Program-made: the position numbers and the translations under genes
In this document: positions 22,885 to 44,004 of the stretch, in pieces
How the letters are laid out: each line of letters opens with the position of its first letter
How positions within the stretch are numbered: position 1 is the stretch's first letter
DNA from: a virus
Lineage: Duplodnaviria > Caudoviricetes
IMG/VR virus record: IMGVR_UViG_3300025316_000018
Span: 1-62,598 of that record
Reading direction: 5' to 3' (one strand)
DNA: 62,598 bases
Notes under the pieces: generated by a model
What the model was told of the DNA's origin: nothing
Database searches by the model: none
The model's input: the letters and a program-made list of their open reading frames with translations, nothing else

Positions 22885-22890
22885 ATTAAT

Positions 22891-23282: not shown

Positions 23283-23354
23283 CTCCATTTCCTAGAATCG
23301 AACTAGGCTCACACGGAGTAACAATCCGGCTGCACACCTTGTGCATTAAATGAA
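23283..23354 (-). tRNA. tRNA-Asn(GTT)-like, no encoded CCA
   Basis: TTCATTT/AAATGGA-G acceptor, CGGA-TTGTTAC-TCCG, CCTAG-TTCGATT-CTAGG; atypical D-arm. Confidence 0.6.
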
Positions 23355-28105: not shown

Positions 28106-28362
28106 TGTTCTACTCCAAAGGTTTTTGAAATAACATCATGACATATCCCAGCACCAATACCTATATACATTGGATCTATGTCATTTTCATCCAAATAATC
28201 ATCTTCAATACTATCACAAATAGACAGGCATTGCCTAATAATTAGTGTAGCAAACTTTACAATATCCTCAGTAATCACATCACTCGTTGTTGGCAGGGAT
28301 ATGACACCATTATTCACATAAAATCCAGCCTGTTCAGCGATCTCTGTTATTTTATCGTTCAT
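28102..28362 (-). CDS. hypothetical protein (FAxLIIxxC family)
   Basis: KFATLIIRQC..FGVE. Confidence 0.65.
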   Translation of the reverse strand: MNDKITEIAEQAGFYVNNGVISLPTTSDVITEDIVKFATLIIRQCLSICDSIEDDYLDENDIDPMYIGIGAGICHDVISKTFGVEQ

Positions 28363-28619
28363 TATAACACCCCAAACTTCTGTTTAATTGAATCTATCAC
28401 AAGTTCCATACCATACCCGACATCCATAGATTTTTGATCGCCAGCATATCGTATGGTAATTTTCTTCTCGAAATCACCGACACATTCTTTGATGATTAAC
28501 TCAGCAAATCTATCGGTGATTTGTTGTGGAATAGTTACTGTATCTAACTCTGAAAGTTCCCAGTAAATTTTATATTCTTCTACAGATTGTTGTAATAATG
28601 CTAACACATTTCCATTCAT
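28362..28619 (-). CDS. hypothetical protein (FAxLIIxxC family)
   Basis: RFAELIIKEC..FGV, paralog of neighbour. Confidence 0.65.
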   Translation of the reverse strand: MNGNVLALLQQSVEEYKIYWELSELDTVTIPQQITDRFAELIIKECVGDFEKKITIRYAGDQKSMDVGYGMELVIDSIKQKFGVL

Positions 28620-28755
28620 GATGTCAACTCCTGCCAAACGTAAATACCTTCATCAACTCCATCAACCAATGCTATACATAATGCAAAACCAAATGCAAAC
28701 ACATAAGCGAATGGGTACACAATAATCTTTTTAATAATAGTAATATATTTCATTC

Positions 28756-28965
28756 TTAACTCCTACAATGAACTGTGACATCTTGCTCTACCGAGTTGCC
28801 ATTTATTGTGGTGTTGCCGCTAGTATAAATCGCTGATATACCGTCTACCCACTGACTCATGCAATCATCTTGTTCACCTTGACCTGAGTACCACTCGACC
28901 CACTGCGCAGCTTGATCTAGTGTATGAAACCCCTTGAGTACAACATTATAACTAGGTTTCATCAT
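28756..28965 (-). CDS. hypothetical protein
   Basis: LKGFHTLDQA..WYSGQGEQD. Confidence 0.6.
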   Translation of the reverse strand: MMKPSYNVVLKGFHTLDQAAQWVEWYSGQGEQDDCMSQWVDGISAIYTSGNTTINGNSVEQDVTVHCRS

Positions 28966-29040
28966 CTCAACAACCACATCCAAATAATAGTAGATAAAAT
29001 AGCACCAATAGCCATTCCTGTTATTGTCACAATACATACA

Positions 29041-29391
29041 CTAACATTCGTCGTCTGCTCCAAGTTTACGCTCCGCTCCAACAATATCCCAGTACACTTC
29101 ATCATCAACTGGTCTATACGATTCTAGTATATCAGCCTGTGTTTTGTTAGCGGTAATGTCACGTCCTTCATACATTTCAAATATTGTATCAGTGACAGTC
29201 ACGTCATCAATTTCCTCGTATTCTGCTGGCTGCCAATGTGTGGCTGGTGTATCTTTACCCGACACACTCACTTCCACTTCCCAGTACACACCAGCAATAG
29301 AACAATCATCAAACCCTAATAGCTTCTCGATCTCGTTATAATCAAACGATGGATTCTTTTCTGCAAACACTATACCAGTATACTTGCTCAT
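29041..29391 (-). CDS. acidic hypothetical protein
   Basis: PATHWQPAEY. Confidence 0.65.
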   Translation of the reverse strand: MSKYTGIVFAEKNPSFDYNEIEKLLGFDDCSIAGVYWEVEVSVSGKDTPATHWQPAEYEEIDDVTVTDTIFEMYEGRDITANKTQADILESYRPVDDEVYWDIVGAERKLGADDEC

Positions 29392-29576
29392 GTTCTATCA
29401 CTCTGTTCAAATCTATCTTTCCATGATGTTAATAGCTCACCACGAACCTTATCTATCAATGGATCATGTAATCCTGAATAAGTATCACATACATCCATAA
29501 CAGTACCTAATGCTTCAATTAATAGCCATTGCTCGTCAGGTGTTAGCTTTAAGTTATAATCGTCTTCGTTAATCAT
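29388..29576 (-). CDS. hypothetical protein
   Basis: ATGA coupling. Confidence 0.55.
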   Translation of the reverse strand: MINEDDYNLKLTPDEQWLLIEALGTVMDVCDTYSGLHDPLIDKVRGELLTSWKDRFEQSDRT

Positions 29577-29794
29577 TTTCGCACCATAACCCCGTTCGCT
29601 TGTTGCTCTGTTTGAAGTTCTGATATGCTGTAGATTCTTTCATCTTTAATATAAAACACACCCGATTTAGTTTTCTGTACAAGAACATAATCCTTGTATA
29701 ACTCCTTAGTATAGTGTGAGTTATATTCAGCACCAATAATACCAGACACTACCATTAATAACGCAATTAATCCTGCCATTTGTAATTTATTCAT
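29573..29794 (-). CDS. small membrane/secreted protein
   Basis: N-terminal hydrophobic helix. Confidence 0.6.
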   Translation of the reverse strand: MNKLQMAGLIALLMVVSGIIGAEYNSHYTKELYKDYVLVQKTKSGVFYIKDERIYSISELQTEQQANGVMVRK

Positions 29795-30095
29795 GTTTAT
29801 TCACCTTTTGATTTAATAATATATCGAAACTCATTATAAAGTAATAATACCGCCACCGCAATAAATATTGATGTTGATATTACCGTAATACCATCACGTT
29901 CATAACTCAGTAATAGAAAACTGAATATACAAAGTGTTAACGCTATTGAACCATTAATCATATAAATCCTGTGTTAATTAAAATCTGATACTTGGGCGTA
30001 GCCCATCGCGTAGCGAGTATTAATACTGTATTAGCACATGTGTTATACGTCCGCTTCGCGAATCAATAGCTACGCCATTGAAGTTCTGGTGCTGT

Positions 30096-30175
30096 ATTAT
30101 ATACTTGTATTAGTTCTTGTGTCAATACGTGTTCTAGTGGTAGTGCATTATACTAACACTACATAAACCTGTCAA
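30096..30175 (-). promoter_or_regulatory. tandem consensus sigma70 promoters
   Basis: TTGACA-17-TATAAT (30175-30147) and TTGACA-18-TATAAT (30125-30096). Confidence 0.75.
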
Positions 30176-30392
30176 GTGTTTTGCAAAACGACTAGCGAAA
30201 ACTCAGCGGCTAATGGTCATATTAGCACATGAATTATATGCGAAAACATGCTAGTAATAGTGTTGTAACACCCTGATTAGTATGACAATGTGCTAATTTA
30301 ACGTACCTTAAACCACATTTAAGGAATCTGCACGTGTGTCTGTGTGTAAAACCGACATAAAACTCATATTTCTGCTTGTATAACTCTTTATA

Positions 30393-30405
30393 AATCAATG
30401 AGTTA
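30393..30405 (+). promoter_or_regulatory. IHF-consensus site
   Basis: AATCAA-TGAG-TTA matches WATCAANNNNTTR in a non-coding block. Confidence 0.45.
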
Positions 30406-30585
30406 AAATGGTGTAAATTCTAGTTTTTGTCGATTGTACGGAATAAAGAAACCCTGTGAGAACAGGGCATAGAATGTGCGGAATTTCGAGCGAGGTATCC
30501 GCAACCTTTTCGATCGTGTATTGCGATGGATGCTCATAACATCCATGACAATCAACAATCTCTATTTAACTCATCTTCCTCGACA

Positions 30586-30762
30586 TTACAATTCTCCCAT
30601 CGGTAAGTGACCAGATATTTCTAACAATTCATCATCGTCCCAAGTACCAAACCAATCAGTCATATTTTCTACATAGAACGCACGTAAGTCATCTACTGAC
30701 ATCAATGATAATTTAGAATTGATGTATTTGAATATTAATTCTTTTCTTTCATTAGCACTCAT
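30586..30762 (-). CDS. small acidic protein (not in ORF track)
   Basis: 58 aa read manually; GGAG RBS; ATGA coupling. Confidence 0.6.
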   Translation of the reverse strand: MSANERKELIFKYINSKLSLMSVDDLRAFYVENMTDWFGTWDDDELLEISGHLPMGEL

Positions 30763-31295
30763 AATTCTCTCCTTAGTTCAGCATCACTCAGACTTTCTAG
30801 AAAATCCACTTGGTTAATACGATAAAATTCACGCATTTCTATATAAGAACAAAAAACAGTATTCCTCTCGGCAATCTGTTCGATCATAGTATCTCGTGGT
30901 ATTGGTTTGGTAATATAATCATTAATGATCCACTCAGGTATTAGATGCTCGAATCCCACGATCTCGTCAGCTTCTAGTGTAGGTTTATCACCACACACAT
31001 TAACACCGCATTCATCATCAAGGTCATCTGTATCAATCAGCAACACATTAACACCATAATCTGCATGATAATCAGCAACACCACCAGACACGACTATCAC
31101 CACACGCTTCATCGCCTGAATAGCTTTATTCCATAACACCCAACAGTCCATGATGTATACACCGTTATGCAATACACTGTAGGGATTCCGTGCGTCATCC
31201 AAATCAAATAGCCTAAAGAACTCTATCACGTCTTCATCGGATGCCATTTCAATCGCGTTCATAAATCTTATTCTATTATTTTCTGATGCAGTCAT
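30759..31295 (-). CDS. acidic hypothetical protein
   Basis: VVIVVSGGVAD..VLLIDTDD. Confidence 0.7.
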   Translation of the reverse strand: MTASENNRIRFMNAIEMASDEDVIEFFRLFDLDDARNPYSVLHNGVYIMDCWVLWNKAIQAMKRVVIVVSGGVADYHADYGVNVLLIDTDDLDDECGVNVCGDKPTLEADEIVGFEHLIPEWIINDYITKPIPRDTMIEQIAERNTVFCSYIEMREFYRINQVDFLESLSDAELRREL

Positions 31296-31318
31296 TTTAA
31301 TACTCTCTTTAATTGTTA

Positions 31319-31558
31319 TTATGCCAGTAAATCTTTTTGTACTTGATCCTTTACGGTCTTGCCGAACCAATAGAACTTACTGTTCCTATGCTTACCAACA
31401 CCTGATACAACGTCCCTCTCTGGGAATGTACCAGCCGCTACTCGATGATGTAACCCACGTTTCTTTATACCATAGATCATACAAATATCACCGACACTCA
31501 TATTACTATTATCAGATACATGTGTCAACCATTTAAAATCAACTGGTTTATTGTTCAT
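31319..31558 (-). CDS. AlpA/excisionase-like HTH protein
   Basis: SVGDICMIYGIKKRGLHHRVAAGTFP..W. Confidence 0.6.
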   Translation of the reverse strand: MNNKPVDFKWLTHVSDNSNMSVGDICMIYGIKKRGLHHRVAAGTFPERDVVSGVGKHRNSKFYWFGKTVKDQVQKDLLA

Positions 31559-31968
31559 GGTTTATCACCGAATGCTTCCTGATATAACAGTTCTATAGTC
31601 TGCTCGTCCATCTTCTCATAGAATGCAGCTAATACAGAATACAGGTAGTTGCTATCATTCACACACGAATCATACACATCATCAACGACCATCATTCTCT
31701 TGTCTTCAATGTGGATGTGAGCATCGTTCTCAAGTTCTTCAACAGCATCCTCTACAGGTGTTTTAAGCTCAATGTCCTGAGCAAATACCTCAATGATAGA
31801 ACCAGAGCCTTTATACTCGTCTATTATAGTGATCTTGTCTATAGGTGACTCAACCAACCCATTATCTGTGTTGATTGACATGATATTGTAATATTCACTA
31901 TTATAATATACGCCATCACCCTTAACTAAATCTTTATAGCCATCTTCTATATCTGCCATGGTCATCAT
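31555..31968 (-). CDS. acidic hypothetical protein
   Basis: ATGA coupling. Confidence 0.65.
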   Translation of the reverse strand: MMTMADIEDGYKDLVKGDGVYYNSEYYNIMSINTDNGLVESPIDKITIIDEYKGSGSIIEVFAQDIELKTPVEDAVEELENDAHIHIEDKRMMVVDDVYDSCVNDSNYLYSVLAAFYEKMDEQTIELLYQEAFGDKP

Positions 31969-32144
31969 GCACCCCATATACCAAGAGCAAATTGTTCTAG
32001 TTCTTCATCTGTCATGTCTTCTAGGATTTCATACTGTACCAGATAGAAGGCAGCTTGTAAGGCTTCTGTATCAGCCTCATTTGTAAAGAAACTAGCCAGC
32101 CTACTAATCAAATCGTGTCTGCTTCTTTGTGTATTAATACTCAT
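31965..32144 (-). CDS. small acidic protein (not in ORF track)
   Basis: 59 aa read manually, MSINTQRSRHDL... Confidence 0.55.
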   Translation of the reverse strand: MSINTQRSRHDLISRLASFFTNEADTEALQAAFYLVQYEILEDMTDEELEQFALGIWGA

Positions 32145-32146
32145 GA

Positions 32147-32419
32147 TTACACCACCTGTATATCATAGTTTAATTGATCCAATGTCAATACATAAAACAA
32201 GTCTAGCTTAGTAACAGAACCAAAAGAATACGCAATGTCTTCCATTGCTGTCTCCTCACCTGTACCATAAAAGAAACCTGTATATGATTCATCTGTCATT
32301 TGTTCTTCCATAATATCATCGTCTGAATCCCAATATCTAATGCGTATTGGTTCTTCACCTGACTCTGGTACATATACTGATGACCGCCGTACTAAACTCT
32401 TTGCTCGTTCAATATTCAT
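32147..32419 (-). CDS. hypothetical protein
   Basis: GGGGA RBS. Confidence 0.55.
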   Translation of the reverse strand: MNIERAKSLVRRSSVYVPESGEEPIRIRYWDSDDDIMEEQMTDESYTGFFYGTGEETAMEDIAYSFGSVTKLDLFYVLTLDQLNYDIQVV

Positions 32420-32687
32420 ATATCCCCCAATCGTTTCTAAATTCATACAACCCACCCCATAGATCAGTAGATTCACACTCAGGATCAAAGTGTATCATAG
32501 TACACCCAAGACCCATAGCCCTTTGTGCAATATAATATAACCATATCGGCAAATACTCGTGGTTCTTATCAACCACCACAATTATATTACCGACACCCTT
32601 GGCTATAACGTATGGCTCAAGGTCTTCAAGGTAACTTTCTTTAGGACAATATGACAACGGTATACTGAATATCTTTTCTATGCTCAT
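32409..32687 (-). CDS. hypothetical protein
   Basis: operon packing. Confidence 0.55.
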   Translation of the reverse strand: MSIEKIFSIPLSYCPKESYLEDLEPYVIAKGVGNIIVVVDKNHEYLPIWLYYIAQRAMGLGCTMIHFDPECESTDLWGGLYEFRNDWGIYEY

Positions 32688-32875
32688 AACCATTCCTGCA
32701 AGTTGCAATCTACCTTGCAACCATCAGCCATGTAGAAGTCTACTGTATGCTCGTTACCCTTTGCATCAGTACCTACCACCTTTAATATATTAAACGCTGG
32801 TGTACCACCACCAGCCTCAAATTCCTGCACATGAATCTTAACGTCTGCCATGTTATGTACTGAATAATTACTCAT
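32684..32875 (-). CDS. hypothetical protein
   Basis: GAGG RBS. Confidence 0.55.
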   Translation of the reverse strand: MSNYSVHNMADVKIHVQEFEAGGGTPAFNILKVVGTDAKGNEHTVDFYMADGCKVDCNLQEWL

Positions 32876-33132
32876 TGTACCACCTCGTTTAACCATGCTC
32901 TAATCTTAGACATACCATCAGCAGATATTGTCCATGTTGGTACACCAGCATCAATATTCAAACCACTATCGCCATCTAGTATAGTGCTGATGTAATACTG
33001 GAATGTACGTTGACCATACTCAGTGTGCATATATCGACCATCATAAAATGTAATGAAATCCTCGTCTGTGACTGCTGTCCAAGGTTGACCTGTAACGCTG
33101 TCGGTAATTCTTAATACATTATTCATCATCAT
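32872..33132 (-). CDS. hypothetical protein
   Basis: FYDGRY..YGQ..YYISTIL..GVPTWTI. Confidence 0.65.
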   Translation of the reverse strand: MMMNNVLRITDSVTGQPWTAVTDEDFITFYDGRYMHTEYGQRTFQYYISTILDGDSGLNIDAGVPTWTISADGMSKIRAWLNEVVQ

Positions 33133-33404
33133 TCACCAAATCATTAACCACATTCTCGACAAATTCCATCATGTCACCAATAGCCTGAAATAACTCGTCA
33201 TCAGTAACATCGTCGCGTATAGCCTCTAATGCTATTATGTAATCAGCCGCAGCATCATTAAGTTTACTAGCTAGTTCTTTATCCATCACACCAACCCCAT
33301 AGTAGCTTCATACAAAGCTAACAGTTCATCATAAGTAATAACATCACCATCAACAGCCGCATTAATGTTATCTACCGCAGTTTTAATCATTGTATTAATG
33401 CCCA

Positions 33405-33641
33405 TCAGCCCACCATCATCTTAAGTTTCAATTGTGGCACAGTGTGTTCAATTCGTGTGCATACATCGGTGTCCGCATCAATGTGCCATACTATGTCATG
33501 GCTGTAAACAGAACCAGTCTCGGTATAGATACCTTCAACCTCGACCAAGCGGGTGTTACCTTTCATGTTATCAGCCATTGTGCCTTTCCAGCCATTAGCT
33601 AATTGTATTCTCATGCCTTTCTTTAATTCATTAGTTTTCAT
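33405..33641 (-). CDS. conserved phage hypothetical protein
   Basis: LKKGMRI..DNMKGNTR..GSVYSHDI. Confidence 0.7.
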   Translation of the reverse strand: MKTNELKKGMRIQLANGWKGTMADNMKGNTRLVEVEGIYTETGSVYSHDIVWHIDADTDVCTRIEHTVPQLKLKMMVG

Positions 33642-33904
33642 ATCAATTCTCATTTAATTATTATCGAGCCTGTATCTTAGCACAGGTAATTTTTATTTGT
33701 TCAACTTTCTTTCAGGACTCATAGATCACTCGCATCCATACAATACCCGTCTTGTCTAGTCATTGTATACACACTCCACTATTTTAATGTGCTTATATCT
33801 ACCACCATCAACAGCATCAAGTAAAGCAGCCTCACAATAATCATGTGACGGGAATTCTATCTGCTGTACCTGTCCTGTATACATCACCACCAACAACACC
33901 CACA

Positions 33905-34306
33905 TTAGATGCCCCACTCACCCAAATTATAATCATGACCACGACTAGCACCACTATGTAACAGACAATGCTCTAATTGAGTCAGCATAGCCTTAGCCTT
34001 GCTACCAGTCCAGCCATCATACTCACATGATTGATAATCAAGGCAGTCAACTAGCTTTAACATAGCACCATCACTATACCCAGCAAACAAGTCTAAATTG
34101 CGTATGTTTATCCTGCCTCGTCTACGTGTCTCGTCATATCGTGTATTAACGCTTTTAACATTAGCCGACCATAATGCCTTTGCTACATTCACAATCATAG
34201 TGTAATCACCACTATCTGTACGCCTACGCCCACCTAACTCAACACGACAAACATACTCATTCGCCACCGCTAATACGTGTTTTTCACTAACCAACCATGC
34301 ACTCAT
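33905..34306 (-). CDS. conserved phage hypothetical protein
   Basis: ANVKSVNTRY, CLDYQSCE. Confidence 0.75.
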   Translation of the reverse strand: MSAWLVSEKHVLAVANEYVCRVELGGRRRTDSGDYTMIVNVAKALWSANVKSVNTRYDETRRRGRINIRNLDLFAGYSDGAMLKLVDCLDYQSCEYDGWTGSKAKAMLTQLEHCLLHSGASRGHDYNLGEWGI

Positions 34307-34506
34307 ATTCTTGCTCCACTACATACATAAGGTTTCTCAATAGCCACATGACAATCGCCATATAACGCCAGCTTATTCATATCACCACCCGTTATTAATT
34401 CGACAGCCTTCTCTATAGCTCGCTTCTCAGCCTTAGCCTCAACAGATCGACACGAATAACCACCACCATCTTTTCTGTACAACGTGACCCTGAATGTATC
34501 GCTCAC
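34303..34506 (-). CDS. hypothetical protein
   Basis: coupled. Confidence 0.55.
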   Translation of the reverse strand: MSDTFRVTLYRKDGGGYSCRSVEAKAEKRAIEKAVELITGGDMNKLALYGDCHVAIEKPYVCSGARI

Positions 34507-34745
34507 ACATCACCCATATAGTGGAAAGTCCATATCTGCTCAGTACCCACCTGAACCAATGGCTGCTCACGCTCTGCCCTAACTAGATCAGCCTTAGATC
34601 GACTGATCTTGTAATCGCGACAATTAACCGCATCGCCATTGATCGTGATTGATCCAGCCACACTGATAACATTGCCAGTCTTAGGCGGATAATATACCTC
34701 GCCTATAACCCTGTTGTTCCTGTCTAATAGTGCCGCCCTGTTCAT
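34503..34745 (-). CDS. hypothetical protein
   Basis: GAGG RBS, coupled. Confidence 0.6.
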   Translation of the reverse strand: MNRAALLDRNNRVIGEVYYPPKTGNVISVAGSITINGDAVNCRDYKISRSKADLVRAEREQPLVQVGTEQIWTFHYMGDV

Positions 34746-35008
34746 GCTATCACCTCGTTAGATAGAGCAACAAAACCCAAGCCCTTCAAGTACGCGTTAA
34801 GCTCTGTATTGCGGTTTTCTATCTCGTTCATTTCAGAGAATACACGACACACAATATCTAACATATAGTCATCTAGCTTAGCGATATCAGTAAACTGTCT
34901 GCTGATGTTGTTGTACTTGACTGCCACACTGCCATGCTCTGGGCATGTATGTACATCAATGTGCCGCACCAAATTACCGACCTTAATAGTTCTTTGTAAA
35001 ATCATCAT
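34742..35008 (-). CDS. hypothetical protein
   Basis: ATGAGGTG RBS. Confidence 0.65.
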   Translation of the reverse strand: MMILQRTIKVGNLVRHIDVHTCPEHGSVAVKYNNISRQFTDIAKLDDYMLDIVCRVFSEMNEIENRNTELNAYLKGLGFVALSNEVIA

Positions 35009-35225
35009 ATCACCTCATTCATTGATTAAAATTAATAATACATCATTGCATTATTATCGTGACCACTCGTTTAAATGGTCACTGTAATAACTTAACGTGC
35101 TTTTAATATACACCGCCTTAAATTGCAATCAGATAGACTCTCAAAGTGACAGCCCACAGTATGCCACTCAATCCAACCATTACTATCGATTGTACCCTTT
35201 ACACCATCACAAATAAATCGTTTCA

Positions 35226-35435
35226 TTATATCACCAAATAATTTTCATAAAGAGACTTACTAGCCAGATATGCCTGTTTTTGCTTAGACACATTTACCCA
35301 GTGCTTACTGATAAATGTACTGCGACTAGCAGACACCTCCCTATAATTGTGTATTGATACATCAACACTAAGCAAATCATTAAGCTTATACTGTTGGCAA
35401 ATCATATTATCAAATAACTCTTTTCTATATTCCAT
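35226..35435 (-). CDS. hypothetical protein
   Basis: AGGTG RBS. Confidence 0.55.
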   Translation of the reverse strand: MEYRKELFDNMICQQYKLNDLLSVDVSIHNYREVSASRSTFISKHWVNVSKQKQAYLASKSLYENYLVI

Positions 35436-35496
35436 ACATCACCTATTAATCAAGATTGATGCTCTATCATTACAATAGAGCAACATACAACCTTCA

Positions 35497-35712
35497 TTAC
35501 AAACCGTCATCATCCTCATAGAAAGTTATACCGCAAGCACCAAAATCAAATCCGTCGGGGAAGGTTAATATTTCTGCTGGATAGTCTTCGTTCATTGACC
35601 ACGTACTAACATCATATTCCATAGCAGCATTTACACTATCAATATCTTTAAACCAGTGAACAGACGCTGAGCCGTCACCGTTGTCACTAACCAAACCATA
35701 AATTTTTATCAT
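35497..35712 (-). CDS. hypothetical protein
   Basis: ATGAGGTG RBS; DNGDGSASVHWF. Confidence 0.7.
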   Translation of the reverse strand: MIKIYGLVSDNGDGSASVHWFKDIDSVNAAMEYDVSTWSMNEDYPAEILTFPDGFDFGACGITFYEDDDGL

Positions 35713-35796
35713 ACATCACCTCATTCATTGATTAAAATTAATAACACTAGAATTAATGCTATTAAGTTTAATCGCCATCCTTGGCAATAAATCACC

Positions 35797-36231
35797 TTAC
35801 CACTTGCCCTTATTGTATAGATCGTTATGATGTCCGCCAATATACGCAGCTAAACATACGTCTATATCATCAAAGTCCTTATGGCTGCTGGTAAAGTCCT
35901 CGTAAGCATTGATAATAATACTAGATACCGTTCCTATATCAACGCGCCTAAAGATATAACCATGCTTTCTTGATATCCTGTCCGCGACAATATCACTGGC
36001 AGAAAATATAACCGCGTTTTCTGCATCAATATCAGCCTGAACAGCGTCATAATACACCGCCTGAGCCTCTTTTAACAGCCGTATAGAATGTTCTAGCTCG
36101 CCCACGCCATACCAGCCGCGAAGCTCTAATAATAGCGTTCTATTCGCTACATCATCAACACAATACCTAACGTCTGCATGGTCATGCATCAGCTTATTAG
36201 ATTGCATCATTACGCTTTCAATAGATAACAT
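35797..36231 (-). CDS. hypothetical protein
   Basis: AATGAGGTTTTAAAATG start. Confidence 0.7.
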   Translation of the reverse strand: MLSIESVMMQSNKLMHDHADVRYCVDDVANRTLLLELRGWYGVGELEHSIRLLKEAQAVYYDAVQADIDAENAVIFSASDIVADRISRKHGYIFRRVDIGTVSSIIINAYEDFTSSHKDFDDIDVCLAAYIGGHHNDLYNKGKW

Positions 36232-36328
36232 TTTAAAACCTCATTATTAAACGATGTCGAATTAACATCAATAATAGCACACTACGTACCATTATTGATG
36301 CTCTATCATTACAATAGAGCAACATCAC

Positions 36329-36520
36329 CTATTTGTATCTAATGCTAAACTTGCCCACTTCTATCAATACCGCCTCGACCTGATTGTCTAGGTAGTTCAA
36401 CCCATTGATTAAACTTACCACTTCACTAGTCGTAGCATTGCTAATCAATACCGAATTACCATCAGCCGCAAGATTAACCCTATACTCTTTTGATGATAGA
36501 TACTTTGCTAAATTGTCCAT
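36329..36520 (-). CDS. hypothetical protein
   Basis: AATGAGGTTTTAAAATG start. Confidence 0.65.
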   Translation of the reverse strand: MDNLAKYLSSKEYRVNLAADGNSVLISNATTSEVVSLINGLNYLDNQVEAVLIEVGKFSIRYK

Positions 36521-36883
36521 TTTAAAACCTCATTATAATAACACCCACAATTGAGCATTGATATAGATGATAATTAAATCACCTATAGCGATAATCAATA
36601 GAATCTATCTGGTAATGCCTCTGGATTATCCCAGTAAAAAGCCTCCATTTGATCTAGGCTAAAATTATCCAAGTCTAACTCACCATTATCACATAATGGC
36701 ATATCTTTGTAGCTCATAATTGCACCTGAAATAATGCTAACACTATTACACCAGCACAAAACACCGCACCGACCAAATTAATCATTAATTCTCTATACAT
36801 TTTAAAACCTCATTATTTGATTAAAATTAATAACACTAGAATTAATGCTATTAAGTTTAATCGCCATCCTTGGCAATATAACC

Positions 36884-37336
36884 CTATACTAGATTGATGA
36901 TAGAATCCATTTTTATATTGAATACATCACCAGCACCACCAGCACCACCAGCGCGAAACTCACTCGCTAAACAGCGTTCTTTTACTGTATCTCTATCAAT
37001 AACAGCACCATTACATGTATATTCTGTAATGGTATTAAAACTAGAATTAAAGCTATTACACCTTAATTGAAGCGTATCCTTAACACGTATCAGGAACGGA
37101 AATATCGCCCACTCGCCATACTTTAAACCCTGATTTTCTGCTGGTAAATCACCAGCTTCTCTTTTTACCACTACCTTACTAAGATTGTCGTAATCTATCC
37201 CTAGGCGTGTTTGAAATGTGCTAGTTTTTATTATTGCATCCATCCCTTTTCTAGTCTTCATTACCCTAGACGTGGTGATAGTCGCAATTTGACCTTTCTT
37301 TGACAGAATACGGCTCATTAGCACTTCATTGTTCAT
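36884..37336 (-). CDS. conserved phage hypothetical protein
   Basis: RLGIDYDN..REAGDLP..GEW..FPFLI. Confidence 0.75.
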   Translation of the reverse strand: MNNEVLMSRILSKKGQIATITTSRVMKTRKGMDAIIKTSTFQTRLGIDYDNLSKVVVKREAGDLPAENQGLKYGEWAIFPFLIRVKDTLQLRCNSFNSSFNTITEYTCNGAVIDRDTVKERCLASEFRAGGAGGAGDVFNIKMDSIINLV

Positions 37337-37421
37337 TTTATAACCTCATTATAATTGTATTAATAATTGACAATCAATTATTGCTATGGATACCCACAAA
37401 GATACCCATAACACTAATAAA

Positions 37422-38147
37422 TCACATCCTAACAACAAATCCGCTTACATCCTTTTTAGCCTTTCCTTTAGCGTATAACGCCACAACACCCGCACCATCT
37501 AAAAAGCGCAAGTCCGTTTTGTCACCGTCAAGGGTGCGCATACCATCAAACATAGATGGAATATTACCCACCTTATCAAACACCACTGCAAAACGCTTGA
37601 ATACTGGATTCAGTTTTGCCTTAGTGTATACATCAATAAACTTCTCTACACCACTATAAGAAAACGTCAAATCGTAATTTGAAGGAATCCCATTGCGAGT
37701 AGGTATTTTAGTATAATCATAAAATTGTACATCTTTAAAGTATTCCATAATATTAGAGTAAATTACACCATCAAACAAAAAGGCGTACTTCTCCCACTGT
37801 ATATCACTTGTACCATTAAGGCGTACCACTGGAATCAATCCCAGTCTTTTGGCGCGTGTTATCAGTCTTTTTATAGACTTTACCATATTGATGAAAAATA
37901 TGGCTCTATCATTAAACCACATAGTAGTCTTTGACAAGCGCGCCAATTGTACATTAGAAAACGCACCTCTGCCTGCCGTATTAAGGCAAGGTTCAGCACA
38001 TCCAGCTAATAAGGCAAATGGACATACATCACCGAAACCACCACCATCACTAGGAGTGAGATAGAGTATTCCTGTAAGATAGCCTTGTGCCTGACCCTTT
38101 ACGGTCTTGGCATCAGCACTCATGGATAGCATCATTTTATAGCTCAT
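37422..38147 (-). CDS. GP88-like protein
   Basis: CP....C...CL.TAGRG, VRLNGTSD, FYDYTK, NYDLTFS, DGDKTDLRFLD. Confidence 0.7.
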   Translation of the reverse strand: MSYKMMLSMSADAKTVKGQAQGYLTGILYLTPSDGGGFGDVCPFALLAGCAEPCLNTAGRGAFSNVQLARLSKTTMWFNDRAIFFINMVKSIKRLITRAKRLGLIPVVRLNGTSDIQWEKYAFLFDGVIYSNIMEYFKDVQFYDYTKIPTRNGIPSNYDLTFSYSGVEKFIDVYTKAKLNPVFKRFAVVFDKVGNIPSMFDGMRTLDGDKTDLRFLDGAGVVALYAKGKAKKDVSGFVVRM

Positions 38148-38838
38148 TTTATAACCTCATTATAAATTATTACCTATACATCATTAAAACAATGACATAG
38201 GCAATAATCCCTAAAATCTAGGCATTATTGCGCCATCTGTCACATGGCTTGAGGTATAAAAATTCCGTATTGTTAAAGAGCTTAATTTTACACAAGACTT
38301 TCTACAAGGCGTAACTATGCCTATACACGAACTATCATTGTGTGATAGATTCCACGGCAAGGCTATACTCTTGCAACTCATAGACACTACTATAGTGCTA
38401 TGGCGTGGGGCTATCATTAGTTTTTAAAGAGCTAGTTCAAAACTTCTGAACTAGAGGACTTACAGTTTAGCACAATGACAACTTAAAGCAATTTTATCGT
38501 TTTTACTGTACCGCACACAGGATCTAATTGTGTATAAGTGCTTGAATTATAACAAAAAGTATTTTTATGTGTGTCCGCAATGATTGCGAATCACTTTTAA
38601 TATAAAACTGTATAATGCCTTATAAAACAGTGTGTTAGCGCGTTATTGTGTGTTAGAGTCAGCATCCTGTTCTCGTTTTGTTCTCTATTGGCGCGTGTAT
38701 TGTCGCCATAAACAAGTAGTAAGTGATTTTAGTCTCTTAGCACGATTATAAGCACGTTTCAGCACTTAGCAATACCATAGTAGCCATAAACGTATAACAG
38801 GCGTTAAAACGCAATTTTAACGCCTTGGCGCGCGTTTG

Positions 38839-38940
38839 CACAAGCACAAGCACAAGCACAAGCACAAGCACAAGCACAAGCACAAGCACAAGCACAAGCA
38901 CAAGCACAAGCACAAGCACAAGCACAAGCACAAGCACAAG
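38839..38940. repeat. (CACAAG)17 microsatellite
   Basis: counted directly. Confidence 0.97.
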
Positions 38941-39193
38941 CACGCGCGTAGCAATAAACGTGCCAATTGCTAATTTTAGCCATTTTTTGGCACGTTTTGA
39001 AAATAGCGTTTTTTGCCGTGGTAGCACGGTTTTGTACTAGGTAATGCTACGGTATAGCAAAACCGTAAAAACGCCTTAAAACGCAATTTTAATGCCTTCC
39101 TGATCTAACGTGAAAAGACACTATTTCGGGTGTTTTTACGATATATCTTTACATGGTGTTGATAATGTGGTTATGGTTTTGTGAAATAAAGTA

Positions 39194-39222
39194 TTGACAT
39201 GGTTTTAATAATGTGCTATATC
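39194..39222 (+). promoter_or_regulatory. possible sigma70 promoter firing into the repeat block
   Basis: TTGACA-17-TATATC with TG extension; no real ORF downstream. Confidence 0.4.
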
Positions 39223-39245
39223 ATGCCAAGTTTTGCACGTTGTAT

Positions 39246-39261
39246 TGTTCCACATGGAACA
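39246..39261. promoter_or_regulatory. parS: parS-like palindrome (1 mismatch)
   Basis: TGTTCCACATGGAACA. Confidence 0.65.
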
Positions 39262-39268
39262 GTGTTCT

Positions 39269-39451
39269 GCACTGTATTGGTGCGGTGTAAAGTTTGTGCT
39301 GAACGGTTCTGCACTGTATTGGTGCGGTGTTCCACGTGGAACAGTACTAAAAGTGGGAATTTTTGCGCGTTTGCACTGTATTGGTGCGGTGTTGCACTGT
39401 ATTGGTGCGGTGTTGCACTGTATTGGTGCGGTGTTGCACTGTATTGGTGCG
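39269..39451. repeat. 21-bp iteron-like repeat GCACTGTATTGGTGCGGTGTT, six copies
   Basis: starts at 39269, 39311, 39373, 39394, 39415, 39436 (last partial). Confidence 0.95.
39328..39343. promoter_or_regulatory. parS: perfect parS palindrome
   Basis: TGTTCCACGTGGAACA. Confidence 0.75.
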
Positions 39452-39466
39452 TGTGAGCGGGAACGC

Positions 39467-39513
39467 GAATGGTAATGGTAATGAGAATGGTAATGAGAAT
39501 GGTAATGAGAATG
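39467..39513. repeat. 12-bp tandem repeat AATGGTAATGAG (about 3 copies)
   Basis: direct reading. Confidence 0.9.
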
Positions 39514-39569
39514 ATTCGTATTCGTATAGAAAAGTTCGATTCTGGCTCAAACTCTTATTCTCGTAACTA

Positions 39570-39690
39570 TTTTTCTACACAATTTTCCAGTACATTTCGA
39601 ATTTTTTTCTACACAATTTTCCAGTACATTTCGAATTTTTTTTCGCAGAAATTTTCAGTACATTCCGAATTTTTTTTTCGCAGAAAATTT
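39570..39690. repeat. T-rich ~34-bp degenerate tandem repeat
   Basis: TTTTTCTACACAATTTTCCAGTACATTTCGAATT twice, then two variant units. Confidence 0.85.
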
Positions 39691-39699
39691 GTGCCCAGA

Positions 39700-39748
39700 G
39701 GAGCGAAGTGAACTCCTTGGGGAGCGAAGTGAACTCCTTGGGGAGCGA
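39700..39748. repeat. 21-bp tandem repeat GGAGCGAAGTGAACTCCTTGG (2 copies + partial)
   Basis: each unit has a GGAG/CTCC hairpin. Confidence 0.9.
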
Positions 39749-39815
39749 TGGATATCTAACAAGAAGTGCTGCACTGTGTTGTACAATGCAGCACATGTAT
39801 CGAGGGTATGGGTGA

Positions 39816-40097
39816 TTAATCGAATATAGCCACGACATCATCTTCATTTACAATAAAGAATGTGTCATCATTAACGTTTGTGGTAGTTGCTTCGTTCTTC
39901 TTAGCTAGTTGCCAATTAGGTAGGATGATATCGCCTTCTTTGACGAATATGCACCCAGCCCCTACTGCTAGTACTCTACCTTTTGTTACTTCTTTTGGGT
40001 CAGCACGGGACAGTACGATACCGCCCTCGGTGATCATTTCTTTTTCGAGCATTTCTACTACGATGTTTTTGTTTATTGGTTTCAGGAAGTGTGCCAT
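39816..40097 (-). CDS. groES: GroES-like co-chaperonin (functional analog of T4 gp31)
   Basis: LKPINKNIVV, TEGGIVL, GRVLAVGAG, VKEGD, NEDDVVAI. Confidence 0.85.
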   Translation of the reverse strand: MAHFLKPINKNIVVEMLEKEMITEGGIVLSRADPKEVTKGRVLAVGAGCIFVKEGDIILPNWQLAKKNEATTTNVNDDTFFIVNEDDVVAIFD

Positions 40098-40098
40098 A

Positions 40099-40293
40099 TT
40101 AATCTCTTAGTAGTTTAGGTGCGGATTCGCCATCATGAACGTAGTCTTCTGCGATGGTGTATGGGTTATCGGCGATACCGACATTTCTGTTGTGTACTAG
40201 TACATTATCCTCATAGAAGTTAATTAGGTATCCGGACGGGGTATCCATTATTTCGGATCGTTTATTATTGTGTTGGTACGACATTGGTTTCAT
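40099..40293 (-). CDS. hypothetical protein
   Basis: operon packing. Confidence 0.6.
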   Translation of the reverse strand: MKPMSYQHNNKRSEIMDTPSGYLINFYEDNVLVHNRNVGIADNPYTIAEDYVHDGESAPKLLRD

Positions 40294-40300
40294 ATATTGC

Positions 40301-42301
40301 CTATGATATCATATTAATAAAACGGTTCAGTACGACTCTATTAGTAGTTCTTTGTTTTGAGAACTTAGTAAATGAGGATACCAGACCACGGGTTGTTGCA
40401 TTTTCTTTCACTTTTAGTTCTGCATCTTCAGCTGTATCCATGCCATCAGCTCTTAGTAGGTAGTATTCATCGTAACCGGCGGTAGTAACGACTTTATAGT
40501 TATCTCTTCGGAACTGTGCTTTAATAGCATCATGATCAATTGTATCTGGGAACAGATATTCAATCGCTGATATTGATCGTCTATCCACGACATAGAACCC
40601 TATTATATTACACTTTGTGATGGACTTCAACAGTTTAAGGTAAGCTGATGTGACTAGTCTACCAACATGCGGAGATTTAATAGTTTCTTGGTGTTTTGAT
40701 TTTGGGTCGCGTATCACGAGTGCTTTAAATGTGTCGGGGTCGGGGTCGATACCCAGACCTATTCTGTCTATTCCATCGTTATAGTGTATGGATCTGTTAC
40801 CATCTGATTCGCCATCCGTGAGGAACACTGTGTTAACGATTTGCAGATTATAGTCTTTTTTAAACTTTGGTACTACTGTCATTGCAGTTACTATAGCGGC
40901 ATTTAGTGGAGTACACCCCAGAGAGAACCATTTAGGAGCTGATTGGTACTCATGCATGTTTCTTGATAAGATAAGCAATGATTGTACGGCATAGTTATAT
41001 TCTCTCGTGGTCATTTTATTCGATAGGATGTTCAGCATATTAACTGACGAGAATATTTCCAGATCCCCGTCTTTGTGTTTTTGTTTACTTTCAGCACATC
41101 TATCGGTAAATGCGTATACCTCGAATGGTATATTAACTTGTTTGCAGAACATGACCAGATTGAGCAATTGTTTAACGGTATTATGCAGTGTATTCTGCAT
41201 AGAACCTGACCAGTCTATGAACAGCACTAATCCATGAGATTTACCATTGGGCACGACCGCTAGTTTCTTGAACACGTCATCCGCGAACTTATACGAGAAT
41301 ATAGCATCCATATTGAGTTCACCGGTTTTGGCGACAGAAGCACGTTTTAGTTGTTGAGCATTCTTTTTCAGTTCGAACTCTTTCACTAGGTATGCCACGA
41401 CTTTCTTTGATTCTGTTCTGAAAGTTTGGTACAGGTCATTATTCAGCACTAATCGTTGTTGATAATGTTCTCGGTAGTATTCTGGGTGTATTAGATCGAC
41501 ATATGTGCGATAGTTTCGCCACACGATTTTATGGTCTACTATTACTTTATCCATATCCACGGTTGGTATATTTCCGTAGTAGTATTCAAAATTAGCCTCT
41601 GAGTATAGTTGTTCTTGGTTTTTTCGTAATGCGTTATCGGTTTCTGACTCTACACGTTTTTGATAGTCGCCTGATTCACCATCGCCATCCCCATCACTTT
41701 CTTGTTCCTCTCCTTCATCATCATTTGGATTGGTGGGTTCTTTATCTTCTATTTCGAGATAATCCATCACTTTTCTTGCTACTATTAGCACCTCATCTAT
41801 TGTGGTACAATTCAAGATCTCTTCCATCAGGTCTTGTTCTATTGTTGTGATGAAATCTATACCACTATTAACACCGAGCTTTATGTACATATTAGCTCTA
41901 TCGATGAAATTTAGTTCATTGATATTAGTATCTTCTGTGCCGAAGAAGTTTCTCTGGACAAGATCATTATAGCCTATGATGAATGGTTGTTTTAGTCCTG
42001 GATATTTGGACTTGATCATTTTTTCTATACGAGCATCTTCTATCACATTTAGCACAGAGAATGTGATGTCTAGTTCTTTAGATCGTGTAAGGAGTTCTGG
42101 TGGTGTGAACAGTGCATGACCGACTTCATGGCCCATGAACAGATCATATAATTCTGGGATAATCTTATCGTCTAGTATAGGTATTGTTAGAATACGGTTA
42201 ATCACATCGAAAGATGCTGTTCTAACTTTACGTTGTTCAACGATAAGATTTTCTGATGCCATTAATTTGGCGAGGATTGATTTGGACTGTACTAATTTCA
42301 T
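40301..42301 (-). CDS. metallopeptidase-like + vWA (CobT-like) protein
   Basis: HEVGHALFT, NVIEDARIE, DWSGSM, TPLN, LTDGE. Confidence 0.85.
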   Translation of the reverse strand: MKLVQSKSILAKLMASENLIVEQRKVRTASFDVINRILTIPILDDKIIPELYDLFMGHEVGHALFTPPELLTRSKELDITFSVLNVIEDARIEKMIKSKYPGLKQPFIIGYNDLVQRNFFGTEDTNINELNFIDRANMYIKLGVNSGIDFITTIEQDLMEEILNCTTIDEVLIVARKVMDYLEIEDKEPTNPNDDEGEEQESDGDGDGESGDYQKRVESETDNALRKNQEQLYSEANFEYYYGNIPTVDMDKVIVDHKIVWRNYRTYVDLIHPEYYREHYQQRLVLNNDLYQTFRTESKKVVAYLVKEFELKKNAQQLKRASVAKTGELNMDAIFSYKFADDVFKKLAVVPNGKSHGLVLFIDWSGSMQNTLHNTVKQLLNLVMFCKQVNIPFEVYAFTDRCAESKQKHKDGDLEIFSSVNMLNILSNKMTTREYNYAVQSLLILSRNMHEYQSAPKWFSLGCTPLNAAIVTAMTVVPKFKKDYNLQIVNTVFLTDGESDGNRSIHYNDGIDRIGLGIDPDPDTFKALVIRDPKSKHQETIKSPHVGRLVTSAYLKLLKSITKCNIIGFYVVDRRSISAIEYLFPDTIDHDAIKAQFRRDNYKVVTTAGYDEYYLLRADGMDTAEDAELKVKENATTRGLVSSFTKFSKQRTTNRVVLNRFINMIS

Positions 42302-42332
42302 ATATCACCGATAGATTCATAATGTATGGGTT

Positions 42333-42360
42333 ATTATACCATGTATTAGCACAGTGTCAA
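42333..42360 (-). promoter_or_regulatory. sigma70-type promoter
   Basis: TTGACA-16-TATAAT. Confidence 0.65.
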
Positions 42361-42363
42361 GTT

Positions 42364-42786
42364 TTATGGTAGTAGGTCTGGAAATGCTTCTTTAATGAAT
42401 TCATAATCTAGACCAGGAACACCTAGATCTTTGTTAAAGATACCCATGACCACTTCTGCTTCTCTTGGTTCAATTGCTTCCAGAAACTGTGTTAATAGTT
42501 CTTCTCTTCGTTGTGGTGTTAGTTGTTCTGCTTGTGGGTGACCTTTTTGGAACAGATATAGTCTACGGATTTCGGTAGACAGTTGTGTAGATGCCATACC
42601 AGGAACCACATCTTTCGGTACATATTTGTGTGGTACTTCTTTGATCAGCCAATGATGATCTGGGTGATAAGCAAGTACAAACACATCAACGAGAGTTTTA
42701 GAGAGATTCTTCTCTACCACTTTCATCTTATCATGACGGGTTGGCGCATTTTCGATTTCGTCTAGCACTTCATAAATATTTTTCAT
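42364..42786 (-). CDS. conserved T4-like hypothetical protein (rnh neighbour)
   Basis: RRLYLF..RREELLTQFLEAIEPREAE..EAFP. Confidence 0.8.
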   Translation of the reverse strand: MKNIYEVLDEIENAPTRHDKMKVVEKNLSKTLVDVFVLAYHPDHHWLIKEVPHKYVPKDVVPGMASTQLSTEIRRLYLFQKGHPQAEQLTPQRREELLTQFLEAIEPREAEVVMGIFNKDLGVPGLDYEFIKEAFPDLLP

Positions 42787-43631
42787 TAAAATTCATCCAT
42801 CACTGATATAAGGTTTCGTAGTTTATATTGAACCATATAGTCCAATAGGTGTTTTCTTGGTGCAGGTTTTGTTTCTTCGTAGCATTTGATGATATTCTGT
42901 TTAATATGTGTTGGTATAAAAGACAGGTCTATCATCTGTTGGTTTCGTATAAAGTTATTCTTTTGTGTTTCATCTTCCCATTCTGTATGGTTTTCGTACA
43001 GAAGTTTCTCAAGGATGCCTTTTGTCACTGATTTCTGTTTAATATCCATAACGAACGTATCACTTGGCGATAGCACATTTGGTACACCATCGCCACGATC
43101 GCCGCGAATAATCTTCTCTTTAAGTTCTAGAGTAGGGTTTTCTGATTTCAGGAACTTCTTTTGCATTGGTGAGTATTGCTTAACGTTTTTGTGGCTATGC
43201 AATTGCAGAAAGTCTTCATCACCGGATAGTATTAGTATCTTTTGTGTTGGTGCGTGTCTTGGTACCAAAGTCCCGATGATATCATCTGCTTCGGCCATAT
43301 CCACATCGATCACCTTGTATGGGAAATAGTCTTTAAGTTCTTGTCTGAACTTGGTCATCATTTCAAACACAAGTTTCCAATCAAGGTCTGATTTAGCACG
43401 AGATTTTGCTCGACACGCTTTGTAGTATGGGAACTCGGACTTGCGCCAATACGTTCTGTTATCACAGCAAATGACCACTTCACCATACTCTTTGAATGTT
43501 TTCACATGTCCACGTATCATATTAAGTATCATATACCGAATATCATTTTCGGTGGGTTTGCTCAGATTCTTCGGTGATATTTGTGGCATGATACCCGATA
43601 TTAGTATCTGGTTTAGATCAATTAATAACAT
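42786..43631 (-). CDS. rnh: T4-type RNase H / 5'-3' exonuclease
   Basis: LIDLNQI, YWRK..YYKACR, EADDII, SGDEDFLQL, GDRGDGVPN. Confidence 0.93.
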   Translation of the reverse strand: MLLIDLNQILISGIMPQISPKNLSKPTENDIRYMILNMIRGHVKTFKEYGEVVICCDNRTYWRKSEFPYYKACRAKSRAKSDLDWKLVFEMMTKFRQELKDYFPYKVIDVDMAEADDIIGTLVPRHAPTQKILILSGDEDFLQLHSHKNVKQYSPMQKKFLKSENPTLELKEKIIRGDRGDGVPNVLSPSDTFVMDIKQKSVTKGILEKLLYENHTEWEDETQKNNFIRNQQMIDLSFIPTHIKQNIIKCYEETKPAPRKHLLDYMVQYKLRNLISVMDEF

Positions 43632-43639
43632 AATATACC

Positions 43640-43975
43640 TTACTCAAAAATAGAATCAAAAAATATGTCTGATGTTGTGGTTTTCCTTCCGATGATACCA
43701 TAGAACCCACACTTTATTAGGTGCTCTAGGTATACTACGGGGTCCGCTAATATAGCATCGAAACAGTCTTCGATCACCATAACACCGTCTTCGTTTGGTT
43801 CTATGAACACTATCTCATAGTTCTTACCAAGTTTAGAACCTCCAACGCTTTCGCCTGGATCTTTGTATGTGAATGTTTCTATGTGTGTATGTTCATCCAG
43901 TTCTTCGTGCGGTGAAAAGATAAACCCATCGTATGGGGTTTCTGCCAATTTTCTGATGTTGTCGAGTAGACTCAT
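43640..43975 (-). CDS. hypothetical protein
   Basis: GGAG RBS; promoter upstream. Confidence 0.7.
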   Translation of the reverse strand: MSLLDNIRKLAETPYDGFIFSPHEELDEHTHIETFTYKDPGESVGGSKLGKNYEIVFIEPNEDGVMVIEDCFDAILADPVVYLEHLIKCGFYGIIGRKTTTSDIFFDSIFE

Positions 43976-44004
43976 ACTGCTCCTATAGTTTCACATGAAT
44001 TAAT

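Follow-up and report, generated by a model that had tools for sequence, protein, structure and literature searches.

Two chromosomal-type parS sites in a non-coding gap of an uncultured T4-like phage genome: candidate loading sites for host ParB

The prophage-plasmids P1 and N15 encode their own ParA and ParB proteins and carry private parS sites that differ from those of the host. A 62,598-nucleotide stretch of viral DNA (Duplodnaviria; Caudoviricetes; IMG/VR virus record IMGVR_UViG_3300025316_000018), referred to here as the window, meaning the whole stretch at its full length, was found to carry two 16-bp palindromes of the chromosomal parS type in a non-coding gap of 1.4 kb. Like P1 and N15, it is a phage genome with a centromere-like site of a ParB-type protein. 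However, unlike in P1 and N15, the site is of the host's own type and no par genes were seen in the window.

In the available text of PMC4368675, the perfect palindrome corresponds to parS2 and parS3 of Pseudomonas aeruginosa, the highest-affinity ParB sites of that species, with slightly lower ParB binding at sites with one mismatch and importance attached to an intact CACGTG core. The same portion of that source describes an unstable plasmid that was stabilised by one perfect parS together with the parAB operon, and the silencing of parS-bearing plasmids by an excess of ParB. The canonical parS is given in the accessible part of PMC5450999 as TGTTTCACGTGAAACA, with a transition at position 5/12 described as well tolerated and the C5/G12 form as common to Pseudomonas species, and the same or nearly the same form is listed for P. 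putida and Myxococcus in PMC7022226. Clusters of binding sites for another host protein, CtrA, are described in the available sections of PMC9437464, where they occur in large intergenic regions of phages of Alphaproteobacteria and allow the phage to read the state of the host ('lytic deferment'); CtrA binding was shown there by electrophoretic mobility shift and reporter assays, and the trait is reported to have arisen independently in several lineages.

In the window, the two palindromes, the repeats with which they are interleaved and the gap that contains them are located as follows.

38418-39815: non-coding gap of 1.4 kb, between a minus-strand open reading frame (ORF) of 68 amino acids (p68) and a Cpn10 homologue
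39246..39261, unstranded: parS site 1, TGTTCCACATGGAACA, with 1 mismatch (central G to A, in the CACGTG core), from pattern search
39328..39343, unstranded: parS site 2, the exact 16-bp palindrome TGTTCCACGTGGAACA, from pattern search with 0 mismatches
39268, 39310, 39372, 39393, 39414 and 39435 (block 39268..39451), unstranded: six dyads TGCACTGTATTGGTGCG, from a repeat and motif search

Sites 1 and 2 were the sole matches with up to 3 mismatches found by pattern search in the 62,598 bases, compared with a chance expectation of 0.17, and two or more matches occurred in 0 of 100 shuffles. The start-to-start distance is 82 bp, and both sites, together with six of the seven dyad matches in the window, are packed into 206 bp of the 1.4-kb gap. 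A single nucleotide separates site 2 from the dyad at 39310-39326, and the two make up a composite unit of parS, 1 nt and dyad. With respect to the consensus TGTT(T/C)CACGTG(A/G)AACA, the fit is 16/16 for site 2 and 15/16 for site 1. Site 2, which is identical to P. aeruginosa parS2/parS3, is by its sequence a textbook high-affinity parS, since it matches the parS described in the available portions of PMC4368675, PMC5450999 and PMC7022226. Site 1 has one mismatch, like parS1/parS4, and is expected to be a weaker ParB site owing to the position of this mismatch in the core. The original prediction had claimed two parS-type sites 82 bp apart, of the Pseudomonas chromosomal type and interleaved with 21-bp repeats, and this was borne out by the sequence, the pattern search and, for the type, the same three sources; the repeats (copies at 39264 and 39306, and four tandem 21-bp units at 39371-39451) are the dyads listed above. 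The arrangement resembles the chromosomal parS of ParABS bacteria in that the sites are clustered and in non-coding DNA. However, these sites are on a virulent-type phage and not near oriC, there is no parAB in the 62.6 kb, and they are only 82 bp apart and interleaved with the putative sites of another protein.

The record is a linear viral fragment of 62.6 kb with an estimated completeness of 40%. The stretch was found in sequencing runs of freshwater and lake metagenomes, and no RNA runs were listed among them. The window encodes thymidylate synthase, ribonucleotide reductase subunits, a primase, a DnaB-like helicase, an exonuclease and a cyanomyovirus-type "peptidase". The helicase shares ~62% identity with the helicases of T4-like cyanophages, and the peptidase ~35% identity with Kyanoviridae peptidases, including that of Pelagibacter phage HTVC008M. 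These identities and the replication gene set agree with the earlier description of a T4-like phage, and the assignment to a T4-like, Kyanoviridae-related phage can be made with fair confidence. Neither ParB_N (PF02195) nor HTH_ParB (PF17762) gave a match above the cut-off in the 62.6-kb window, and for the CbiA/ParA-type domain PF01656 just a sub-threshold P-loop match of 14.1 bits was seen, inside the helicase gene. The earlier statement that parA and parB are absent from the window therefore holds for all three domains, an absence that applies to the window alone, which is ~40% of the genome. A complete ParABS locus, with parA and parB on the replicon, was thus not found within the window.

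The palindromes are interpreted, with moderate confidence, as chromosomal-type parS sites that have been selectively kept and are most likely loading sites for host ParB. Under this interpretation, host ParB, a DNA clamp dependent on cytidine triphosphate (CTP), would be brought onto the phage genome at the parS sites. These would not be part of a phage partition locus and would lie in a 1.4-kb hub of candidate host-regulator sites. Besides six dyads that resemble the NtrC consensus, this hub contains an exact sigma-54 promoter consensus and a conserved promoter-like pair, which would fire into the parS sites. ParB binding to the phage sites is what we infer; given such binding, the consequence considered most plausible, at somewhat less than an even chance, is that phage DNA would be tied to host ParABS and positioned or partitioned in a slow or stalled infection (carrier state). 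Less plausibly, ParB would serve as a local operator or roadblock that gates the promoter pair, competing or cooperating with a dyad-binding protein, and least plausibly of the three, ParB would be titrated off the host chromosome or SMC would be recruited. The original prediction had named segregation of the phage genome, disguise against SMC-type plasmid defences and ParB titration as possible benefits. ParB reportedly represses promoters adjoining parS3 and parS4, to judge from the title of 10.1101/151340.

The P. aeruginosa parS plasmid is a foreign replicon that has a single chromosomal-type parS and is stabilised by ParA and ParB, the mechanism that is proposed here for hitch-hiking by the phage; however, that plasmid was engineered according to the available text of PMC4368675, whereas the phage element is natural and the need of the phage for partition is presumed. 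The present phage is also similar to those described in the available sections of PMC9437464 in having a large intergenic region dense in candidate sites for host proteins. As in the CtrA type, the distribution is skewed towards one intergenic region, with 2/2 parS sites and 6/7 dyads of the window found within 206 bp. However, CtrA is a transcription factor, whereas the putative binding proteins here are the partition clamp ParB and an NtrC-like protein.

Literature searches, with most subscription journals outside their coverage, returned no description of a native host-type parS on a virulent phage, in agreement with the earlier statement that none was known in T4-like phages. Papers that pair parS with phage appear, by their titles and abstracts, to use parS as an engineered label, and the accessible part of PMC13510664 mentions just the host's own parS cluster. 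If host ParB does load at these sites, a virulent T4-like phage would exploit chromosome segregation with one 16-bp sequence. This would provide a mechanism for the persistence of a "lytic" phage in slow or starved freshwater hosts (carrier state, pseudolysogeny), add ParB to CtrA on the short list of host DNA-binding proteins read by phages, and make parS a new sequence-based clue to host range.

Relatives were sought by an IMG/VR search with the peptidase, which returned 16 loci, two of them close (L004 and L005). L004 (95% identical) stops inside the 34-bp repeats of the gap, short of the parS sites. L005, in which the peptidase is 63% identical, is the sole relative lineage that spans the gap, and its flanking genes are syntenic and 63-89% identical. 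Its two parS-type sites, TGTTCCACGTGGAACA at 4760 and CGTTTCACGTGGAACA at 4881, are spaced at 121 bp, alternate with copies of a related repeat and fit the consensus at 16/16 and 15/16 positions. The second of these has a C-to-T change at position 5, which is tolerated by ParB according to the available text of PMC5450999. A further locus, L166, was the sole match listed in a metagenome scan with the Cpn10 alignment, and is an independent assembly of the L005 phage (99.94% identical) and not a third lineage.

The gaps of the window and L005 share 76% identity in aligned columns, and since they align at this level, the whole gap is apparently under some constraint. The dyad arrangement differs between the two, but both retain the order parS-dyad-dyad-parS, and the composite unit of parS, 1 nt and dyad is aligned between the window and L005/L166. 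Conservation of the parS sites thus rests on two lineages, with a background of 76% identity in the gap. Among the 95 loci fetched (916 kb), parS-like sites with up to 1 mismatch were found in L005 only. Two scans of genome bins returned no relatives, the gap DNA gave no match in 50,697 phage records, and a search for the combined pattern of iterons plus parS identified 55 viral contigs, one of which is the known relative. The scan of related phages that had been proposed showed two sites in L005/L166 and none in five named Kyanoviridae genomes (895 kb in total). As these five genomes have none, the parS sites are, on present comparisons, a lineage-specific gain and not a general T4-like feature.

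The integrity of the gap sequence was examined in other assemblies. Contigs of two other studies cover 38960-39385 and 39216-39366 with 0 differences. A variant strain from a third study has substitutions at 39191, 39193, 39232 and 39348, many changes in 39587-39636 and deletions of repeat copies. It also has a back-joint that runs from 39345 to 39285, with 20 letters inserted, and implies an extra dyad unit. In other lake metagenomes, 30 nt are deleted at 39467 and 21 nt at 39700. No listed difference in the variant strain falls inside either parS 16-mer, in a comparison for which parts of the stretch are without cover in X6 and X7. That the segment is host DNA misassembled into the contig, an outcome that would have overturned the original prediction, is excluded by the independent assemblies and the contigs of other studies.

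The exact parS sequence was also sought in viral contigs more generally and was found in at least 120 of them. Among the matches listed, these represent 91 flank clusters with G+C contents from 0.23 to 0.71. Two control palindromes of identical composition were found in 3 contigs (reversed palindrome) and 66 contigs (core-swapped palindrome). When one representative per cluster was compared, with non-coding defined as the absence of a covering open frame of at least 80 amino acids, non-coding placement was seen in 22/91 parS clusters and 1/46 clusters of the core-swapped control (p=0.0006), and a second site with up to 1 mismatch in 9/91 and 0/46 clusters, respectively (p=0.03). ParB_N was identified in 3 of the 50 parS records tested, and in 1/15 of those that are at least 90% complete. 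No tyrosine integrase and no AAA_31-type ParA was found in 18 parS records (15 complete) in a search that had serine recombinases outside its range. Thirteen of the 15 complete genomes have one parS and 2 have two, and because complete genomes carry just one or two sites, the motif is not a reiterated phage promoter.

The survey suggests a wider phenomenon, in which many complete viral genomes that have no ParB, ParA or tyrosine integrase carry 1-2 exact sites, often non-coding and sometimes paired. It is possible, though on balance doubtful, that orphan host-type parS is a widespread cis-acting hijack element of non-integrating phages that loads the host ParB-CTP clamp, and that its fusion to NtrC-type dyads in the present phage integrates nitrogen and ParB status in the choice between productive and deferred infection. 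Orphan parS would then give positioning or partition by host ParABS and SMC, or a reading of chromosome or cell-cycle state. In an unrelated 116-kb viral contig without ParB_N (L173, 8310-8834), a non-coding gap of 520 bp contains two sites at a distance of 100 bp, one an exact parS and the other with 1 mismatch, and each is flanked by AATAAGCTATTA-type inverted repeats. Most of the neighbouring genes of L173 have no assigned function.

In four other contigs (L222, 309-348; L253, 3371-3410; L286, 13-52; and L167), the C5/G12 and canonical T5/A12 variants of parS occur with starts 24 bp apart, directly after a TATAAT-like element, which is an operator-like position. Such an arrangement is what would be expected if the palindrome were an operator for a protein other than ParB, either a phage regulator encoded in the 60% of the genome that lies outside the window or a host factor, with the likeness to parS arising by convergence or through a ParB-derived DNA-binding domain. 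In the window itself, this explanation also fits the placement of site 1, at about +16 relative to a promoter-like element, and of site 2, which a single nucleotide separates from a dyad. However, 62 of the 64 positions in the four sites of the two lineages fit the ParB consensus, the variation at position 5 is of a tolerated kind, and no HTH_ParB or ParB_N is encoded in the window. The exact 16-mer also occurs in the 91 unrelated flank clusters listed, across their full range of G+C content, and such recurrence is better explained by a universal host protein than by many private regulators. An operator for another protein is therefore considered unlikely.

A different placement was seen in L198/L201 (1509 in L198), L206 (6483), L259 (2640) and L223 (6576), where a single exact parS directly follows a terminator or stop codon and lies 20-35 nt ahead of the next start codon, in two instances adjoining the major head gene. 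The recurrence of this position in several unrelated phages would be consistent with an RNA-level element, in which the 16-mer forms a 6-bp hairpin in a plus-strand transcript from the promoter-like pair of the window, or in 5' leaders in other phages, and affects RNA stability or processing. However, an element of this type would be expected to drift with compensatory changes, whereas phages that are unrelated have retained an identical DNA sequence. As there is also no T-run after the site and no Rfam match, with nothing relevant detected by Rfam in the searched sequence, a role as RNA is extremely improbable.

The possibility that the sites are functionless, either left over from captured host DNA or a palindrome that arose by chance and is yet to decay, receives some support from the five named relatives, none of which (0/5) carries parS, from the many viral occurrences of parS in coding sequence, which may be chance, and from one control palindrome that is also common (66 contigs). 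It is nevertheless very unlikely, as two copies are found in each of two lineages with flanking proteins that are just 63-89% identical, and the sites have been kept while the neighbouring repeats were rearranged. In addition, no other host-like sequence surrounds the sites, the G+C content of the gap matches that of the phage, and parS is non-coding or paired far more often than the control palindrome.

Several observations weigh against host ParB loading at selectively kept sites. The enrichment in the count of parS, between at least 1.8-fold and at least 40-fold, is not robust because the two controls gave 3 and 66 contigs, and in 69/91 parS clusters the site is covered by a long open frame and may have arisen by chance. 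The footprint of conservation is suggestive but not decisive, since it is drawn from two lineages and the gap itself is fairly conserved. The lack of variants within parS in other strains is not significant by itself, as ~0.3 substitutions would be expected in 32 bp, and a single unlisted difference in X2 record 3, close to the end of a contig, is not placeable. The absence of parS from the five named Kyanoviridae genomes indicates that it is dispensable for such phages. The window shows no excess of half-parS heptamers (11 compared with 14.6 expected), and the core mismatch of site 1 is of the type that lowers ParB affinity according to the available text of PMC4368675. The assignment to parS uses the Pseudomonas-type consensus, which may not be that of the host, and the remaining 60% of the genome could encode its own ParB.

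The dyads interleaved with the parS sites were considered together with the following two features.

37422..38147, minus strand: p241, a gene of the GP88 family (PF17338), downstream of the gap
38950..38965, minus strand: exact sigma-54 -24/-12 consensus TGGCACGTTTATTGCT, pointing to p68 and p241

The 21-bp repeats form a dyad element, TGCACC-N5-GGTGCA, with the core TGCAC-N6-GGTGC. In other viral contigs, the element takes the form of a perfect 7-3-7 dyad, TGCACCAnnnTGGTGCA, which is the NtrC consensus given in the available portions of PMC8743547 and PMC4987338. Each of the six dyads in the window fits 11 of the 14 specified positions of this consensus; they are individually weak, and the consensus may not be that of the host. 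Together they make up six of the seven matches in the window at up to 3 mismatches, compared with 2.43 expected, and all six are within 184 bp. The multiple 17-bp copies of TGCACCAnnnTGGTGCA that characterise an NtrC enhancer are thus represented in the window by six copies at 11/14. The fit is closer elsewhere, with 13/14 in the L005 copies and 14/14 in several loci that carry p241. In 79 loci chosen for holding a p241 homologue (715 kb), 83 dyad matches were found at up to 2 mismatches, compared with 0-3 in ten shuffles and about 1.4 expected. The 83 matches fall in 34/79 loci, nearly all of them 150-650 bp upstream of the p241 homologue (loci L030-L090), and no parS was found in any of these 34 loci.

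As the dyads are found upstream of p241 in 34/79 unrelated loci without parS, they belong, on this comparison, to the p241 gene cassette as its cis-element and are not origin-specific iterons. The parS sites appear to be joined to the dyad element in this lineage alone. The p241 cassette with its dyads suggests control by a host regulator, possibly in response to nitrogen. Arrays of NtrC-consensus dyads lie upstream of this enzyme-like gene in many uncultured phages and could be relevant to phage ecology where nitrogen is limiting. The dyads were not found in four named phages with a p241 homologue (Limnohabitans DC31, HMO-2011, HTVC120P and Rhizobium TRX32-1), and because those phages are without dyads, the host cannot be inferred from them. 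Loci L020-L024, in which p241 is 73-77% identical, were rejected as syntenic relatives, as p241 is the sole gene in common.

The p241 product (Pfam GP88, PHROG 1617) has three invariant cysteines (C42, C50 and C54) and other enzyme-like conserved blocks. Its predicted structure, a confident one with a predicted local distance difference test score (pLDDT) of 85.9, gave weak matches to alpha/beta-barrel proteins, including the radical-SAM proteins QueE, DesII and NifB; there was no Foldseek match at E <= 0.001 and no PDB sequence match below E = 0.06. The protein resembles an enzyme, as yet uncharacterised, and has a wide distribution among aquatic phages and mycobacteriophages. Its invariant cysteines and weak alpha/beta-barrel or radical-SAM-like fold matches make it unlikely that p241 is the dyad-binding protein, and this candidate was rejected.

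The element at 38950-38965 is the single exact sigma-54 consensus in the 62.6 kb and is ~300 bp from the nearest dyad. Multiple phased dyads with an exact -24/-12 element ~300 bp away resemble NtrC/sigma-54 control of the enteric glnAp2 type. However, the present dyads belong to a phage genome, where they precede an enzyme-like gene, and the sigma-54 element is degraded in L005, where GG is changed to AG. A sigma-54-like site was found in just 3/28 dyad-bearing loci, where it is upstream of the dyads, and was absent from the other 25/28. A general NtrC-to-sigma-54 model for the dyads was not supported. NtrC acts with sigma-70 in Caulobacter and Rhodobacter according to the available text of 10.1101/2023.06.06.543975, and it may be that NtrC works with sigma-70 in some hosts, or that another protein reads the dyad.

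The remaining features in and beside the gap are listed below.

38838..38943, unstranded: microsatellite (GCACAA) x17.7, separating the sigma-54 site from the downstream genes
39148..39222, plus strand: tandem promoter-like pair, pointing into the parS/dyad block
39148-39177, plus strand: promoter-like element 1, TTTACA-18-TATGGT
39194-39222, plus strand: promoter-like element 2, TTGACA-17-TATATC, read from the sequence
39474..39748, unstranded: further repeat families, with (AATGGTAATGAG) x3.3, a 34-bp unit x3 and a 21-bp unit x2.3
39570-39676: the 34-bp unit x3, the AT-rich part
39700-39748: the second 21-bp unit x2.3
39766..39794, minus strand: strong terminator-like hairpin with a 12-bp stem, which would end the upstream replication-gene operon
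39816..40097, minus strand: Cpn10 (GroES-like) gene, the right boundary of the gap

T4 origins consist of a promoter plus an unwinding element, and the gap resembles these. It is long and non-coding and contains no fewer than five families of direct repeats, the promoter-like pair would fire into it, the AT-rich 34-bp repeat block lies beside the dyads (G+C content of 0.29-0.33 at 39500-39700), and four of the dyads are in tandem at a 21-bp spacing, which is two helical turns. The gap might accordingly be the phage replication origin, with the repeats serving as initiator iterons and parS mimicking the oriC-proximal context of the host (ParB/SMC loading), and it had been described as a putative origin in the original prediction. 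However, that description was based mainly on the 21-bp repeats, which prove to be NtrC-like dyads of the p241 cassette, present 150-650 bp upstream of p241 homologues in 34/79 unrelated loci of which none has parS. The neighbouring p241 is enzyme-like and not an initiator, and no initiator was identified, so that origin-specific repeats beside, or bound by, an initiator were not found. The cumulative GC skew changes slope near 38 kb with no sign flip, and the AT-rich stretch is modest, barely below the genome mean of ~0.365. The description as an origin was therefore not supported and is considered distinctly unlikely.

Both promoter-like elements are conserved in L005. Element 2 has no T at position 6 of its -10 hexamer and its activity is presumed; parS site 1 starts ~16 nt past its predicted start. 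The pair is a duplicated ~30-bp element (TTGACA/TTTACA ... ATAATGTG ... TAT) directed away from both flanking genes. Since no conserved ORF follows it, the product, if any, would be a non-coding transcript. The plus-strand ORFs in the gap were rejected as conserved genes, because the residues shared with L005 are those encoded by conserved DNA motifs. The pair is compatible with a transcription-primed origin and equally with plain regulation.

At the other end of the gap, a 19-nt arm of the terminator-like hairpin is identical in the window, L004 and L005, and the copy number of the repeats in 39474..39748 differs between strains. In L005 (5239-5553), another simple repeat, (GCTGTGCTGAT)n, takes the place of the (GCACAA) microsatellite and is enclosed by a perfect 23-nt inverted repeat, and the microsatellite region looks like a hypervariable leader.

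The GC skew is -0.2 to -0.32 over a block of small ORFs (28000-38000) and ~0 from the gap on (38000-44000). This shift occurs at the gap despite minus-strand genes on both sides, and the gap divides two compositionally distinct modules. A cluster of three tRNA genes (Met-CAT, Thr-TGT and Asn-GTT) was found on the minus strand at 22634-23355, in the small-ORF region.

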